64,000 nucleotides of DNA from Bdellovibrionales bacterium (GTDB lineage Bacteria; Bdellovibrionota; Bdellovibrionia; Bdellovibrionales; UBA1609), in assembly GCA_016714165.1 (NCBI GenBank), contig JADJNU010000004.1, forward strand, positions 44,944 to 108,943. The letters run 5' to 3'. Made by a program: the position numbers and the translations under genes. The notes below the pieces were generated by a model that searched no databases, was not told the DNA's origin, and was given only the letters and a program-made list of their open reading frames with translations. This document shows positions 1,230-20,819 of the stretch, in pieces; the stretch's first letter is position 1, and every line of letters begins with the position of its first letter.

Positions 1230-1703
1230 TTATGGATTTCTTTGTTGTTGCTCAAATAGGTTTGTTCCTGGATTTGGAATGCAAGTGCAGGACCTGCAAC
1301 CACTCGAATTGTATGTGCACTCTTTCCTTGCACCTAGAAATGCGCAATACGGTTCATAGTCGGAGCAATTCGAGCCCGGCCGCTCCCTAAATACTGAACA
1401 ACCAATAAGCGAAATATATAAGAAAAAAACAGAAAACCACCCGAGCACTAAGTAAGCAATGGACGGACGTTTCCGCCCAATGCTCCTCTGATAATCGGAC
1501 AGACGTGACTTATGCATCCTGCTCTTAGATAGGTGTTTCAACTCAGCTCCAAAATTACTGGTGACGTCATTTAATTCACAATCAAATGCGGTTATTGGAA
1601 ATAGCATAGGGTCACATATCGTGCGGCAGATACGACGATCGCCAGCAAAAATCATGGCTTTTAAGGCCGAGAAATTTTGAAGTTTACTTTGAAAGTCTTT
1701 CAT
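1230..1703 (-). CDS. small membrane protein with Cys-rich C-terminal tail (hypothetical)
   Basis: ORF 1230..1751. Preferred start is ATG 1703, preceded by GGAGGG. One hydrophobic helix (LVLGWFSVFFLYISLIG) is followed by NCSDYEPYCAFLGARKECTYNSSGCRSCTC (6 Cys). It overlaps the stop of the upstream M48 gene by 20 nt on the same strand. The helix plus NCSDYEPY block has a paralogous copy at 20080-20184 with synonymous or conservative codon differences. Confidence 0.5.
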   Translation of the reverse strand: MKDFQSKLQNFSALKAMIFAGDRRICRTICDPMLFPITAFDCELNDVTSNFGAELKHLSKSRMHKSRLSDYQRSIGRKRPSIAYLVLGWFSVFFLYISLIGCSVFRERPGSNCSDYEPYCAFLGARKECTYNSSGCRSCTCIPNPGTNLFEQQQRNP

Positions 1704-2925
1704 GATCTTTTCCCTCCAATTTGATTCTCTGCAAGCGATTGTTGGTTTCATGAATATTTACTTTTTCACCAAATGACCAACCCTCTTGCCTTAAATATTC
1801 AATCTCTTTCGCCAATCTCCAAGCCCTCCAGCAGTGGGTTGGATGACTCTGTTCGATAAGGAGTTTATTTCTAATCTTGAGAGGGTAAAGTACGGCTGGG
1901 GCTTTGTCCAGTGGCACAGGCCGGTTACAAGTTATTCCCGTCAACCATGACGCTGAATTTTCTCTTTTCACCCAGAGATCTAGCAAAGCATTTGGGTCAA
2001 AGCCCGCTCGTGAATAATATCGAAGCCCAACAAGATCAGCTTCTATTTCCATCCAATATTTGAATTCGGTATCGCCAATAAGTCTCTTCAACCTGGAAAT
2101 ATAATTTGAGAGAGCATTATTTAATTTACTTTCATCCAGTTGTCGAATTTGATCGGCATAATTGTGGTAAACAAGAGAATCAAGTTGACCAAGAAAAAAC
2201 TCAGTATCCGCTGAATAAGAAGGGCGATCCCAATCATTTTTGGCGGAGTCAACTGCAACTCCAATCTGAGTGTCGGCCATTAGCTTCAAATTCGAAAAAA
2301 CATCTCTATGTTTCCGCGCAGATTGCTTGAGCGTTTCCGGCAGATTCTGATGTGACGCAAGCTTTGTAAGAATCGACAGGTATTCCGTTGAGAATTTTGA
2401 CAGTTCCTTAAAATAAATCTTTTGTAGATTTGCAATCTCTTGATCGTTTACTCCAGGATGAAGAAAGGGAGTCCCAAGATAATGTTGCAGAGTTACATGA
2501 GCCAACTCATGGGCAATGACTGCCGCAACTTCGGCGTCACTCTCAAATTCATCAACAAAATTTGAAAACTTGAGAGTTCCATTTCCCATGTTTCCCGCGG
2601 ATGCCATGCTTCCCCTAGCGGCTTCGCCCTTGAGCACGAATAGACAAAATTCGCTTTTCGCGTATTCCGACCTAAATACGTCAGGGTTTGCATCCATAAC
2701 GAGTTCAACTACATCACCTAGGTATCTTTTAGTTTCTATCAATCTATCATCGCTCTGTTCGTCATCCTTACATTCCCATAGTTTATAGTTGTTATAGACA
2801 CGTCTCTCAGTTAGTTGCACCTTTTCGCCAGACAAAAGCGACTGATATTTGGCCCAGACTGAATTGGTATTGGCTAAGGTAGAAACAAAAATTGGTATAA
2901 CTACAAGTGCTCGTCTGATACCCAT
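1684..2925 (-). CDS. M48-family zinc metallopeptidase, secreted/periplasmic
   Basis: HExxH motif (AVIAHELAHVTLQH) plus a downstream WMEIEADLVGLRYYSRAGFDP block typical of M48 (BepA/Oma1-like) peptidases. ATG 2925 behind AGGAAGGG gives the signal peptide MGIRRALVVIPIFVSTLANTNSVWA. Confidence 0.8.
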   Translation of the reverse strand: MGIRRALVVIPIFVSTLANTNSVWAKYQSLLSGEKVQLTERRVYNNYKLWECKDDEQSDDRLIETKRYLGDVVELVMDANPDVFRSEYAKSEFCLFVLKGEAARGSMASAGNMGNGTLKFSNFVDEFESDAEVAAVIAHELAHVTLQHYLGTPFLHPGVNDQEIANLQKIYFKELSKFSTEYLSILTKLASHQNLPETLKQSARKHRDVFSNLKLMADTQIGVAVDSAKNDWDRPSYSADTEFFLGQLDSLVYHNYADQIRQLDESKLNNALSNYISRLKRLIGDTEFKYWMEIEADLVGLRYYSRAGFDPNALLDLWVKRENSASWLTGITCNRPVPLDKAPAVLYPLKIRNKLLIEQSHPTHCWRAWRLAKEIEYLRQEGWSFGEKVNIHETNNRLQRIKLEGKDHERLSK

Positions 2926-4429: not shown

Positions 4430-5065
4430 ATGAAGAATCAAAAATACCAAATAAAGAACTTTGTTGTCTGGAGTTTCTTTGCCTTTCTGATGGTTTCATT
4501 GGCCATGATGACCACCGCTTGCGGCAAGAAAGATGGCAAGACGGCGACAACTCCCGGGAATACATACAATCCAAGTTGTCCTGGTTGCGTTGCTGATGGG
4601 ACCCTGCTAGGAGCGGCACTCGGATTCAATGGAGGTACGCTGGCCAATTACCGTCTCGAGCTAGGCCTTACATTTTCTGGATCGGCTGGTGCCTCGGGAT
4701 TCTCCGGTTACAGTGGTCCGGTTTCAGCTGTTGGAATAATGTCGGTGCGAGTTTCCTCTCAGTATTGTCCCATGCCCATCGGGGCCTATCAGGTTGCCAC
4801 AACGGCAAATGGTCAGTGGGATGCATCGCTGGGTGGATTTCGTGGCCTTTCACTAGAGGCTCGTCATACCGATGGAACGATCGTTCGCTTGCGCTTTGAT
4901 TATGGAATAATACGAGGTGTTCAGCCAAACCTCATTGATGATGGAAGTCGCGTTTATCCTTATGGTCTCATGGCTGACGTTATCGTTGATTCGGTTAATA
5001 GCGTTGTCTGTGTGGCCGGGTACCCGGGTCTTCCGCCTTTAAATAAATTTTTCTTTACCTATTAG
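4430..5065 (+). CDS. hypothetical lipoprotein
   Basis: 211-aa ORF. Hydrophobic leader ending in the lipobox MTTAC-GKKDG. Confidence 0.7.
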   Translation: MKNQKYQIKNFVVWSFFAFLMVSLAMMTTACGKKDGKTATTPGNTYNPSCPGCVADGTLLGAALGFNGGTLANYRLELGLTFSGSAGASGFSGYSGPVSAVGIMSVRVSSQYCPMPIGAYQVATTANGQWDASLGGFRGLSLEARHTDGTIVRLRFDYGIIRGVQPNLIDDGSRVYPYGLMADVIVDSVNSVVCVAGYPGLPPLNKFFFTY

Positions 5066-5184
5066 ATCTATTAAATGGATCTGTTTAAATGCATGAGGAA
5101 ATAGATCTAGGAGATATAGACCTACGATAAATAGATCTTCGAGAGATTTGATGGCCGAGTAAAGTGAAATAGTTGAGGAAGAAA

Positions 5185-5841
5185 ATGAAAAATGTGAAAG
5201 CGAAATGGACATTACTAGGTGGATTGTTAATCGCAATTTTTGCTTCCGGATGCTCCTATCAGTGGCGAGAAGCGGATCCTGGAATTGACGACAAAATTCT
5301 TATGGATATGATAGACGAATTTGGACAGAGCTCTGGCGCAGGAGGTATGTCTTCGTTCCTATCTTTGGCGGGACGTGAAAACGCTGTCCTCTATTTTGCG
5401 GAAGGCTGGTCCGACCAGCAAGGGACGATGGGCCCCCCTGCCAGCGTTTTGGCTATTTTGGACTTCAGCTTTATGGGACAATCGAGTGACTTGTCACCCC
5501 TGGACATGGATAACGCAAGGGCCATTTTTGTAGATTTAAAAAATGAGTCTGGAGAGCACGAGAATGCTCTTCTCATTGATTTTGTGCTTAAGGGAAAGAC
5601 AGCGCATGTGACAAAGGTATTTGTCAGCCAAAGTGGAAATGGCATTGTGAATGGTGAGGAATTTGAAGTGGAGATGTCTGACGGCAGTGGCAAGCCTATT
5701 TTGGTCAGGAGCTATGATCTTGTTGACGGAACTGATGATTTAAAGGGAACAATTCAACTGAGTCTTTGGGATTTTGATGCGAACAACAACGAAGATTTTC
5801 TCGGAAAAATTTCAACTTTAGTTGGTTTCGAAGGCGAGTGA
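5185..5841 (+). CDS. hypothetical lipoprotein
   Basis: ORF 5173..5841. Preferred start is ATG 5185 behind GAGGA. Leader MKNVKAKWTLLGGLLIAIFASGC carries a lipobox. Confidence 0.7.
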   Translation: MKNVKAKWTLLGGLLIAIFASGCSYQWREADPGIDDKILMDMIDEFGQSSGAGGMSSFLSLAGRENAVLYFAEGWSDQQGTMGPPASVLAILDFSFMGQSSDLSPLDMDNARAIFVDLKNESGEHENALLIDFVLKGKTAHVTKVFVSQSGNGIVNGEEFEVEMSDGSGKPILVRSYDLVDGTDDLKGTIQLSLWDFDANNNEDFLGKISTLVGFEGE

Positions 5842-16327: not shown

Positions 16328-16462
16328 TAAACAGAGGCATCGGTGCTCTCAAAGCTGTGTAACCTAAGATTTCCTGGAGAAACATTGGGATTAGGCTCGG
16401 GTGGGGCGGCCAGGAATACTTTTGAATCGGGCCTAAATCGCATTTGAAATCCTTAGCCGTCT
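16328..16462. repeat. 135-bp direct repeat, copy 1 (identical to 17174-17308)
   Basis: Compared base by base by eye; all 135 nt are identical. Confidence 0.9.
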
Positions 16463-16471
16463 ACCCGATCG

Positions 16472-17140
16472 TTAGGGCCGACGAAAGAAATGATCATGTT
16501 TGCGGTCAGCAGTTGGAAATCCGCTGAATTCCAATTTTTTGAGGATATTTCTTGAAGCAGCGTTTTTCTTTAGGACAGAAGCATGGACACCGGTGGCATT
16601 CAAGTGATCAAACGCAAATTGAAGAACCCGATCCACCACTTGAGTACCGTAACCTCGCCCCCAAACTTCAGGCATCAGGGAATAACCGATGGAGAACCAA
16701 GTTTCACTCGGGCGACCAATTTCATAGTCATAGATGGCTTGAAGGTCCGCTCGAACTAACTGAATAGATCCAACAAGTTCGTTGTCAACTTCAATCACGA
16801 AATCGATCGCAAGATCTCTGACGGATAAGGCGGAGGCGAGAGTTCTTTGGCCACGACGAAATATAACCTTTACCCTATCGGCATCCAACCGATCCCCACT
16901 CATCCTTCTGACCTTTGGGTTTCCGAATAACTTGATCATAAAATTTAAGTCTGAGTCAGGATCTACCGGTCTTAACTGACAACACGCGGTCGCTAATTTA
17001 AGTTGCTCTATATTTTCAGACCGGGAAAGATTGAGTGCACCCCCCAGTTGAACATGGCAGATTTCTGCTCCAAGTGAGTCACTAGGTAAGACCAAAGATG
17101 TCACAAAAAACCAAATCAGAACAATGAAAAGATCTAACAT
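16472..17140 (-). CDS. GNAT-family N-acetyltransferase (RimJ/RimL-like) with hydrophobic N-terminal leader
   Basis: 222 aa. VGSIQLVRAD...FSIGYSLMPEVWGRGYGTQVVDRVLQFAFDHLNATGVHASVLKKNAASRNILKKLEF carries GNAT motif A and B. The N-terminus MLDLFIVLIWFFVTSLVLPSDSLGA is signal- or TM-like. Confidence 0.8.
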   Translation of the reverse strand: MLDLFIVLIWFFVTSLVLPSDSLGAEICHVQLGGALNLSRSENIEQLKLATACCQLRPVDPDSDLNFMIKLFGNPKVRRMSGDRLDADRVKVIFRRGQRTLASALSVRDLAIDFVIEVDNELVGSIQLVRADLQAIYDYEIGRPSETWFSIGYSLMPEVWGRGYGTQVVDRVLQFAFDHLNATGVHASVLKKNAASRNILKKLEFSGFPTADRKHDHFFRRP

Positions 17141-17173: not shown

Positions 17174-17308
17174 TAAACAGAGGCATCGGTGCTCTCAAAG
17201 CTGTGTAACCTAAGATTTCCTGGAGAAACATTGGGATTAGGCTCGGGTGGGGCGGCCAGGAATACTTTTGAATCGGGCCTAAATCGCATTTGAAATCCTT
17301 AGCCGTCT
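17174..17308. repeat. 135-bp direct repeat, copy 2
   Basis: Identical to 16328-16462. It continues directly into the IS256-type transposase tail. Confidence 0.9.
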
Positions 17309-18694: not shown

Positions 18695-18953
18695 AATTTT
18701 AAGCTTTAAATTTCTTTTGCTCTACTCAAATTGAAAGACCACCAGGGAAGATCAAGGCGAGAAATGTCTTGCCCAAATAAGAAAATTTGGCTAGACACTG
18801 TGAGTGCAAGAAGTGATGCCGCTCACTCATACACAAAATTTCTTACAGTCTCACTCCAAGCCTTCGAGCCCAAGATTGACCTTCCCAGAACTTAACCTTT
18901 TTTGTTTACCCATACATAAAAATCGCGCAATAAAATATCAGAGATCCAATCAG

Positions 18954-19318
18954 CTACTACTGCACATATAGCGTCTTATAACTTTCGCTGGGATCTTATG
19001 GTTGTGTGCTCATCTCACAATTTGTGGCGTTCAGCTCGAGATTTCTGGTCTTCATGTTTAAACTCAAGTATCCGTAGCAATTCTCATGCGGTGCTCTTCG
19101 TCCTTGAGAGCCTTGACCCCGGATCCCATCCACTCTCTTTGCCTGAGCGAGCATTGGTATATTTCACTGTCCACTTTTTGATTTATGGCAAAATCGGGGG
19201 AAAATTGTTAGTAAATTATCGAGCGCGAATAAAATATCCATGTCCATTTGATCCATCCAATATTATCTTGAGATGTTTTTGATTTTTTTTGCCTAAACGC
19301 ATGGGTAAATCATTATTA
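18954..19318 (+). repeat. left arm of a long imperfect inverted repeat (non-coding conservation)
   Basis: Aligns with the reverse complement of 20179-20503 in four blocks, including a 44-nt perfect core (19072-19115). Confidence 0.8.
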
Positions 19319-19345
19319 ACAAGACTTTTCTTACATCAAATCAGC

Positions 19346-19375
19346 TTGACTCAGTGAATTAAATTCTGCTAGATT
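19346..19375 (+). promoter_or_regulatory. putative sigma70-type promoter for the 19557 ORF
   Basis: TTGACT (19346-19351), an 18-nt spacer, then TAGATT (19370-19375). Prediction from consensus only. Confidence 0.3.
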
Positions 19376-19556
19376 CAGCGACCCTGATTTTGATGCCTCC
19401 TCTTAAAGATGGCGACGAATAAGAAGATTTAGGAGAAGTTGTCTTTTTCGGGCCTCATAATGGGGGCAAATCGGTGTCGTCTTTGAGAGTATTGGTTTTT
19501 TTTCTGCTACGATCATTCCGGTTTTTTTAGGAAGTTGGTTTGAAGGGAATTGTTTT

Positions 19557-20042
19557 ATGCTTGTCAAATTTTTTGGATGTTTAATTACTTTGAGTTTCTC
19601 TCTGAGCGCATTTGCCACCAGCAACCTTGAGAAGTCTGAATGCGTTAAAATACTTAAGCGAGAACAGATTGTTTGGAGCTTCGAATCAAATGAAGTCGTG
19701 AACGAAAAGGTGTTGGGGGATTACTTGGATCTGTTGTCGGTCTTCGCAGAACCGTCGCCAAAGACTCTAAAATTGTCTTTGTTCGAATATGAAAGATACA
19801 TCACGCATTTACTCTCGGTTGAGAGGCTTGAGGGTCCATGGGTGACAGATGAATTATTGCCCAATCTTTTGGTTGCGCATCCTGAGTTAGAGGTCTCCCA
19901 GATTCCACCTAACAGTTGGCATAACCTTCAAGGTCCACCTCCTAGAAAATTGTATTTAGCTAAAAACCGAGTCAAGGGAACAGCGGCATATTTTGCCATT
20001 TTTTCCCGTCAAGGAAAGATCATAGTCTGGCCTCTTGATTAA
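19557..20042 (+). CDS. hypothetical secreted protein
   Basis: 161-aa ORF. Leader MLVKFFGCLITLSFSLSAFA. No family recognised. Confidence 0.55.
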   Translation: MLVKFFGCLITLSFSLSAFATSNLEKSECVKILKREQIVWSFESNEVVNEKVLGDYLDLLSVFAEPSPKTLKLSLFEYERYITHLLSVERLEGPWVTDELLPNLLVAHPELEVSQIPPNSWHNLQGPPPRKLYLAKNRVKGTAAYFAIFSRQGKIIVWPLD

Positions 20043-20079
20043 TGAACCTTGGTCCGATGATGAAAGTTAGGATTTGGTA

Positions 20080-20184
20080 ATGTTCGGATGGTTCTCTGCG
20101 TTTTTCCTTTTTTTTTCGCTTGTTGGCTTTTCAGGCTTTAAGAAGCAGCCAAGCCCAAATTGCTCCGACTATGAACCGTATTAG
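20080..20184 (+). CDS. 34-aa hydrophobic micro-ORF, or gene fragment paralogous to the C-terminal part of 1230..1703
   Basis: MFGWFSAFFLFFSLVGFSGFKKQPSPNCSDYEPY*. It aligns codon for codon with GWFSVFFLYISLIGCSVFRERPGSNCSDYEPY, with no indels and several synonymous changes. The upstream in-frame continuation has a stop (..WSDDES*), so it may be a remnant. The RBS is weak. Confidence 0.3.
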   Translation: MFGWFSAFFLFFSLVGFSGFKKQPSPNCSDYEPY

Positions 20185-20503
20185 TGATTTACCCGTGTTT
20201 TCGGCAAAAAAACGCCATAGCTCCCATTGAGAGCCAATTATTGAGTATTCTTGAGTCGAGACTATGGTAGCATAATTACGTGGACGGTGAAATATACCAA
20301 TGCCGATGCTTAAGGCAAAAGAGAGAGGACGGGGGCCGGGGCCAAGGCTCTCAAGGACGAAGAGCACCGCATGAGAATTGCTACGGCTACTCAAGTTTAA
20401 ACACGAAGGCCAGAGAAGACTTGAGCCGAACGCCACACAAGTGAGATGAGCACACACCATAGGGCCGGGCGAAAGTGATCAGTCGCTATATGCGCAGTAG
20501 TAG
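20179..20503 (-). repeat. right arm of the long imperfect inverted repeat
   Basis: Its reverse complement aligns with 18954-19318. The perfect 44-nt core is at 20343-20386. Confidence 0.8.
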
Positions 20504-20662
20504 TTTGGGTGCCCATGAGATTTTTGAGTCATGAATTTAAATACGGGTAGCCCTACTGCTCTTCGCTAAATCTTTTCCTCTTCATCTTCGCCTCTCACTT
20601 TTTTGGTTTATGATACAGAGAGACTCATCTTTCAACTGGTTCGGTTTTCGGTGGAAAGGTCA

Positions 20663-20819
20663 TCGGGGCCAGAAAAATTCTCTGCCTCCTTGATTTTGGT
20701 CTGCCAATATTCTCTGGTCTTAAATGTTTTCTCAGAATTTTTCACTCATACCTCCTTGGGTATGGAGTAATCTATGAGAAAAATTCACATCACAAAAATA
20801 GGGTGTATGGAGCGCTCAC
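20663..20819 (-). mobile_element. solo left-end remnant of an IS66-family element (inverted relative to IS66-A)
   Basis: The reverse complement reads GTGAGCGCTCCATACACCCTATTTTTG...AAGGAGGTATGA GTG AAA AAT TCT GAG. This is homologous to 10325-10480. The orf1 reading frame ends after about 35 codons and homology is lost. Confidence 0.75.

Follow-up and report, generated by a model that had tools for sequence, protein, structure and literature searches.

Insertion sequences (IS) of the IS91/ISCR type have no terminal inverted repeats and insert beside a fixed tetranucleotide, and the IS200/IS605 and IS110/IS1111 families are also without terminal inverted repeats, unlike the repeat units that are the subject here. 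The miniature inverted-repeat transposable elements (MITEs) of bacteria include the Correia elements of Neisseria, ERIC and RUP (PMC3184786). The locus analyzed is a pair of inverted repeat arms in a stretch of 64,000 nucleotides from a Bdellovibrionales bacterium (GenBank assembly GCA_016714165.1, contig JADJNU010000004.1, positions 44,944 to 108,943 of the forward strand; this whole stretch is called the window below). An earlier note, made from the letters of the window, had offered three readings of the pair: an invertible or foldback segment, copies of a dispersed non-coding repeat or small RNA gene, or a non-autonomous mobile element. Comparison of the window with public sequence collections (genome assemblies, metagenome contigs, proteins and RNA runs) shows that the last two readings describe the same thing, as each arm is probably one copy of a small, non-autonomous, MITE-like mobile repeat that is bounded by terminal inverted repeats, occurs in dispersed copies, and has at its core a covarying, presumably transcribed, structured non-coding RNA.

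Limits of the arms and the dispersed repeat family

The inverted repeat is real and far beyond chance. BLASTN aligns 18954-19174 with 20503-20280 at 83.7% identity over 227 nt (E=2e-58), a repeat search recovers every alignment block listed in the earlier note, and the 44-nt perfect match reported there is indeed exact and occurs only twice in the window (0 occurrences expected by chance). Global alignment likewise bears out that, from the core to the inner end, the two arms cannot be aligned. The arm limits proposed at the time, 18954-19318 and 20179-20503, located the arms correctly and their ends incorrectly, missing 5' leaders of ~50 nt with the terminal inverted repeats. Three sources agree on the true units, which are 18900-19314 (plus strand) and 20183-20554 (minus strand). 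The right arm matches a copy at another locus (L001) at 94.4% identity over exactly 20183-20554; the similarity between the micro-ORF (open reading frame, ORF) beside the right arm and its paralogue stops at 20181/20182, where the terminus AGTGATTTACCCGTG starts; and contigs from activated-sludge metagenomes switch to unlike sequence at 18900/18901, 19314/19315, 20183 and 20555. In one metagenome contig a complete copy of the right-arm type is nested in a tail of the left-arm type, with the joint at 20554.

The repeat family is represented by a seed alignment of 21 complete cores, a model-fitted alignment of 31 copies, and a covariance model (R1) of 224 positions and 37 pairs. In the window cmsearch finds exactly two matches to this model, i.e. 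the two arms, whose features are as follows.

18900..19314, plus strand: left arm, a complete unit of 415 bp, partly decayed, with 32 of the 37 model pairs kept
20183..20554, minus strand: right arm, a complete unit of 372 bp with its fold intact, 36 of the 37 model pairs kept
18905-18913: 5' terminus of the left arm, TTTACCCAT
19300-19314: 3' terminus of the left arm, CATGGGTAAATCATT
18955..19179, plus strand: structured core of the left arm (model R1 over its full length, 222.5 bits, E=9e-61)
20275..20502, minus strand: structured core of the right arm (model R1 over its full length, 211.4 bits, E=1e-57)
19072..19115, plus strand: 44-nt perfect match, consisting of an invariant hairpin (19072-19091) plus helix 7
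20343..20386, minus strand: right partner of the 44-nt perfect match
18905-18913, 19300-19308 and ~19124-19134: sites of a shared pentamer in the left arm, with equivalents in the right arm
20208..20236, minus strand: terminator-like hairpin of the right arm, just inside the 3' terminus, with a stem of 8 bp, a loop of 3 nt and the tail TGGCGTTTTT

Over all collected DNA the model has 31 matches (copies or fragments), 29 of them beyond the arms of the window and at 21 other loci. The most conserved 20-mer, CCGTAGCAATTCTCATGCGG, occurs at 13 loci in five metagenome-assembled genomes (MAGs) of Bdellovibrionales/Bdellovibrionaceae and in 8 metagenome contigs, and has no match among viral contigs, plasmids or phages. 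Two further copies were reached through spurious ORFs: the 109-aa ORF called in the right arm has two database "relatives" (P0001 and P0002) on short NCBI/ENA contigs, which are not proteins but ORFs running across repeat copies, the DNA of these contigs containing the same repeat unit with the common 3' end ...GGGTAAATC and ~50 nt more at the 5' side. None of the other loci shares the flanks of the window arms; thus the copies are independent insertions. Unit length ranges from 359 to 469 bp. In MAG JADJOV01, which has the multiple dispersed copies per genome that are expected of a MITE, there are 10 matches on 7 contigs, among them five full-length copies of 469 bp that are 95-98% identical. 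So far the family is confined to Bdellovibrionales, and literature searches found no description of this repeat element. At one locus (L019:7545-7726) a copy ends ~22 nt past the invariant 20-mer; ~160 bp beyond this cut copy lies the gene for a 1049-aa Bdellovibrio "mosaic adhesive trimer" fibre (L019:7868-11017; NF053851, Peptidase_S74).

Nearly all copies, in every subfamily, are bounded by (ga)TTTACCYRT...AYRGGTAAA(tc), which in the JADJOV01 copies extends to a perfect 15-bp terminal inverted repeat, AAAGATTTACCTGTG...CACAGGTAAATCTTT. The copies are intergenic. The order of parts within a unit is the terminal repeat (ga)TTTACCYRT, a leader of 45-115 nt, the core of ~225 nt, a variable tail of ~100-130 nt and the opposite terminus AYRGGTAAA(tc). 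Leaders and tails vary between subfamilies, whereas every copy shares the core, with a conservation of 70-93%. Most subfamilies have a tail hairpin followed by a run of T just inside the 3' terminus; in the right arm this hairpin (20236-20218) and its tail receive a terminator score on the strand of the RNA, and in the left arm the hairpin is degraded. Leader and tail have a short direct repeat in common. A core-less mini-copy of 135 bp (L003:3195-3330), in which leader plus tail stand between both termini, is consistent with deletion between these direct repeats. No common target sequence was found at the insertion sites, and a target duplication of TA, as in the IS630/mariner type, was considered and discarded, the paralogue junction and the L001/X3 boundaries falling 6-8 nt outside TA.

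Covariation and strand of the structured core

RNAalifold predicts 31 pairs from the 21 cores, 18 of which are still paired through changes on both sides. In the 31-copy alignment standard pairs occupy 93.4% of cells, compared to 81.9±0.7% in shuffles and 36-44% with slid partners; double changes occur in 23 of the 37 pairs (12.4±1.8 in shuffles), and the covariation score of 0.269 exceeds both that of shuffles (0.114) and that of slid partners (no more than 0.056). The covariation is strong, as none of 500 shuffles reaches the observed value on any of five measures. In helix 7 all seven pairs vary, and a pair can occur in as many as four types. The hairpin CCGUA-GCAAUUCUCA-UGCGG, on the other hand, does not differ among the 28 copies in which it is fully covered, an identity that is partly imposed, as its 20 nt served as the search bait.

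A second hairpin (in the right arm GCUCAAGU...ACUUGAGU) is variable, differing in register by subfamily and folding from different sequences in nearly every copy. It encloses the segment CUGGYC, which forms the 5' strand of helix 5 and has its pairing partner, GRCC, further downstream, in the variants GGUC/GACC, GGCC/GGCC and GUUC/GAAC; an enclosed strand that pairs downstream makes this an H-type pseudoknot. The fold belongs to the aligned (sense) strand, as one U·G pair is invariant (28 of 28 copies) and other pairs exchange GU for UG, which on the other strand would give C·A mismatches. The core of ~225 nt is therefore an RNA with a defined structure or, at the minimum, a single-strand fold specific to one strand, and the case for it rests on covariation rather than on folding energy.

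The conservation is non-coding, as had been concluded from frames shifted by indels of 1-3 nt. The inverted arms differ by indels of 1, 1, 1, 1, 2 and 3 nt; the phase of conserved landmarks shifts from subfamily to subfamily; and in several copies none of the six frames is free of stops. A stop-free frame is present on the sense strand of many copies, but this strand is only 18.7% A. A protein-coding core was accordingly rejected, there being no reading frame conserved across copies. A cis-regulatory leader was rejected as well: the copies have the same orientation as the downstream gene in 9 cases and the opposite orientation in 9. A search of Rfam 15 with either arm, or with copies from eight other loci, returns nothing at E<=1, in agreement with the lack of a known RNA family in the initial description.

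The core RNA would be read from the 5' repeat toward the 3' repeat, with transcription probably starting from a promoter in the leader and ending at the tail hairpin. In one young copy a promoter-like site in the leader faces the core. In the window, where the left arm would be read on the plus strand and the right arm on the minus strand, the two RNAs are predicted to converge. The best guess is that the RNA serves the maintenance or mobility of the element itself rather than a host pathway. The enzyme that mobilizes the unit would act in trans and is presumably encoded elsewhere.

Several observations weigh against a mobile repeat with an RNA core. Folding energies of single sequences are no better than those of shuffles (z = +0.52 and +1.13), and covariation with G·T wobble would also be compatible with a fold of single-stranded DNA. 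None of the public RNA runs contains the sequence, and the leaders yielded no convincing sigma-70 promoter that is conserved. Target-site duplications are absent from all of ~15 well-defined insertions (young copies, other subfamilies and the paralogue-defined junction), and in particular the young JADJOV01 copies have no flanking direct repeat. Finally, no autonomous element with matching ends was found in the 208 kb of copy-bearing loci.

Origin of the pair, enclosed genes and rival explanations

The two arms are not sisters. In a maximum-likelihood tree the right arm groups with the copies L001 and L002 (support 92/100), and the identities agree, the right arm being 93% identical to L001 and the left arm 87% identical to its nearest relative, L020, compared to 85% between the arms. 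The tails fail to align because the arms stem from different sub-lineages. The differences of each arm from its nearest relative cluster in helix 7, where the arms are identical to each other and carry a variant, UGCUCUUCGUCCUUGAGAGCC, that is present in both window arms and in no other copy, the nearest relatives differing there. The simplest cause of this identity would be a short gene-conversion tract, and the 44-nt perfect match arises because the invariant hairpin adjoins this apparently converted helix. The history suggested by these comparisons is one of two independent insertions ~0.87 kb apart, in a region already rich in mobile-element debris, followed by the conversion that would have removed the differences between the arms in helix 7. 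A small paralogous gene may have been truncated when the right arm was inserted, or by a rearrangement at its end.

The following features lie between the arms or beside them.

19346..19375, plus strand: sigma-70-like promoter match, TTGACT-18-TAGATT, with 9 of 12 matches, between the left arm and the 161-aa ORF
19557..20042, plus strand: orphan ORF of 161 aa with a signal-peptide-like N-terminus, between the arms
20074..20184, plus strand: micro-ORF, a truncated paralogue of a small membrane-anchored, Cys-rich ORF at 1230-1751 (minus strand)
20658..20818, minus strand: solo left-end fragment of IS66 type, ~100 bp outside the right arm and outside the repeat family

The secreted 161-aa ORF and the micro-ORF that had been described between the arms are both present in the ORF listing, with the stop of the micro-ORF adjoining the right arm as stated. 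The promoter in the same description fared less well; the site exists, but at 9 of 12 matches it is no better than chance, promoter-like sites in the region being at chance density (4 found, 3.4 expected). The 161-aa ORF belongs to no Pfam or NCBIfam family and has no relative but itself among 5.8 billion proteins. The micro-ORF (20078-20182) is 79% identical to 1450-1346 by BLASTN, and this alignment is perfect for 25 nt up to ...GAACCGTATT (20181) and is then lost, the micro-ORF being truncated where the 3' terminus of the right arm cuts it off. The missing 3' part was not found on the other side of the right arm. The IS66-type fragment 20658-20818 is 85.7% identical to 10485-10326, the start of an IS66 orfA/tnpB element. 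Elsewhere in the window, perfect direct repeats of 135 bp (16328-16462 and 17174-17308) stand around a 222-aa acetyltransferase-like ORF (16472-17140, minus strand).

It is possible, if doubtful, that the pair also forms a composite MITE-flanked transposon with the 0.87-kb interior as cargo, a proposal that is compatible with the reading of each arm as a MITE-like repeat. All four close pairs of copies are inverted, and the small genes between them, one or two per pair, are functionally unrelated: the secreted orphan in the window, a 119-aa secreted protein in L023, an ArsR-like regulator with a small SRPBCC-like protein in L012, and, between head-to-head copies in L006 (3193-4230), a 345-aa RelA/SpoT-like protein (small alarmone synthetase-like, by eye). 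A contig of metagenome run X1 carries 19326-20327, i.e. the interior and part of the right arm, at 99.5%, in a sample without coverage of the genes that flank the pair in the window. However, this contig is without the left arm, breaking at 19326, 11 nt past the left-arm terminus, and its sequence to the left of that point matches nothing in the window. The arms, moreover, come from different sub-lineages, four inverted pairs out of four have a chance probability of ~0.06, the L006 pair is head-to-head and not tail-to-tail, and neither an empty site nor a second copy of the whole 1.65-kb block was found. A test of the cargo through relatives of the 161-aa ORF was abandoned, this orphan offering no relatives to compare.

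A less probable alternative is that the fold acts as single-stranded DNA, the units being non-autonomous rolling-circle elements (HUH/Y2, IS91/ISCR-like) whose hairpins are recognized in transposition. The missing target-site duplication, the strand-specific and wobble-compatible fold, and the hairpin just inside the 3' end would all suit such a mechanism, as would the sole recurring neighbour of the repeat, namely remnants of IS91/ISCR-type Y2 transposases, fragments of which occur at 7 of the 21 loci and in 4 of 96 sizeable ORFs (L013:2474-3521, L004:7331-7978 and L011:4293-4826, as well as L008, L006, L018 and L019). These remnants, however, are frameshifted pseudogenes at variable distance (0-5.8 kb) and in variable orientation; the repeat has inverted-repeat termini and variable flanks, unlike IS91/ISCR; and a pseudoknotted, multi-helix fold of 225 nt with invariant loops would be unusual for a transposition signal. 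In L013 an IS91-like end abuts the 3' terminus of the repeat. That IS91/ISCR is part of the repeat was considered and rejected, as this is mere abutment and the IS91-like end recurs in L011 in a different context.

The Pfam tally of the 96 neighbouring ORFs otherwise consists of typical mobile and defence debris. One candidate for a parent IS (L013:272-1232) appeared as a same-ended shell with a DDE gene and was rejected, proving to be an independent IS481/IS3-like rve_3 IS with no RNA core. This IS, of ~1.03 kb, encodes an HTH_32 + rve_3 transposase (313 aa when intact, in L024) and has the terminal inverted repeat TGTAATGGCAACTTATTC; in L013 it has its own ends, TGTAATGGCAAC..., and is inserted in a fragment of the leader of the repeat. 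Its copies in metagenome contigs are at L013:296-1183, L026:2526-3557 and 4534-5561, L025:2797-3798 and L024:~80-1128.

No more probable than rolling-circle movement is a specific mechanism that goes beyond the MITE-like reading, in which the unit would be non-autonomous and part of a mobile system, hitherto undescribed, that depends on RNA. A recombinase encoded at another place in the genome would use the pseudoknotted RNA as its cofactor (guide, scaffold or decoy), and the RNA segment GGAU-CCYRU-CC would recognize the termini of the unit itself. If true, this would explain both the missing target duplication and the fact that each copy has the same pentamer variant (CCUGU, CCCGU or CCCAU) at three sites, i.e. 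the 5' terminus, the 3' terminus (as reverse complement) and the core segment GGAU-CCYRU-CC. CCTGT is found in one clade and CCCGT in the other; CCCAT is found at all three sites in the left arm only, the nearest relative of which has CCCGT at all three. Two copies, L022 and L017, depart from the rule, the variant of L017 being G·U-compatible. The agreement concerns 5 nt, three variants and two exceptions, and is thus short, with few independent events; in the left arm the change of the core pentamer is at odds with one pair predicted for helix 8, a helix that is itself weakly supported. Possible causes are a third site for a cognate enzyme, an RNA segment that recognizes the termini, or parallel transitions of CpG type.

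That the pair is a programmed invertible (foldback) switch, in which recombination of the arms flips the segment with promoter and ORF, was the first of the readings offered initially and is now very unlikely. The inverted arms do enclose a promoter-like site and an ORF, and the 44-nt match with the apparent conversion tract indicates at least one past recombination of the arms. The arms are nevertheless independently inserted copies of a mobile family, 370-415 bp long and of different sub-lineages, rather than short recombinase sites; there is no invertase or recombinase ORF at 17-23 kb of the window; and the promoter match is at chance density. Where metagenome contigs switch strand, the joints belong to diverged copies in other contexts, with 5-11 mismatches per ~70-100 nt, and four metagenome runs contain no same-strain inverted joint, although absence from contigs is no proof. 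A fossil local inverted duplication, which two nearby copies at ~84% identity might suggest, is refuted by the existence of 29 more copies or fragments in different genomes and contexts, by the closer relation of each arm to a foreign copy than to its partner, and by tails of different subfamilies that do not align.

Significance and comparison with known systems

The finding is thus more specific than a local inverted duplication, namely a MITE-like repeat without target duplication that carries a structured RNA not catalogued before. New classes of bacterial RNA that are longer than 200 nt and combine multi-helix covariation with a pseudoknot are seldom found, and have often proved to be ribozymes or ribonucleoprotein scaffolds. 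Here the structured RNA is the sole cargo of a mobile repeat, in a predatory order of hosts whose non-coding RNAs are almost unexplored. If the RNA aids the movement of the element, it would provide a new link from transposition to structured RNA; an RNA at the service of the host would instead amount to an RNA gene spreading by hitch-hiking. The seed alignment of 21 cores, the fitted alignment of 31 copies and the covariance model make the family searchable and open to transcription tests and structure probing.

Invertible promoter switches (fimS, hin and the Bacteroides invertons) are similar to the locus in having inverted repeats around a short segment with a promoter-like site, but they use repeats of 10-30 bp with an adjoining recombinase, unlike the whole mobile units found here with no recombinase near. 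IS91/ISCR elements and the eukaryotic Helitron share with the repeat the absence of target duplication, the 3' hairpin, the strand asymmetry and, in the case of the repeat as nearby remnants, Y2 transposase genes; unlike IS91/ISCR, the repeat has inverted-repeat termini, no conserved flanking tetranucleotide, and no intact Y2 gene at a fixed distance.

The omega RNAs of IS200/IS605 (TnpB/IscB, HEARO) and the bridge or seek RNAs of IS110/IS1111 are, like the core, structured RNAs of 150-250 nt within a mobile element, and the core segment CCYRU shares its variant with both termini, as a donor-recognizing guide would. The differences are that the repeat has no Rfam match to the models of those RNAs, that its insertions have no common target sequence, and that no TnpB, IscB or IS110-type family is present among the 25 listed of the 73 matched in the neighbouring ORFs (Pfam), the units themselves being gene-free.

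MITEs differ from the repeat in two respects. Classical MITEs mobilized by DDE enzymes have a target-site duplication, which the repeat does not, and no parent IS of the repeat was found; and MITE transcripts are usually simple long hairpins, unlike a unit that consists mostly of a covarying, pseudoknotted fold of ~225 nt with invariant loops. In their other properties the two agree: the repeat units are small, non-coding, intergenic, bounded by terminal inverted repeats and present in many dispersed copies, some of them nearly identical, and the family, like MITEs, has nested, truncated and core-less copies and pairs that can flank other genes.

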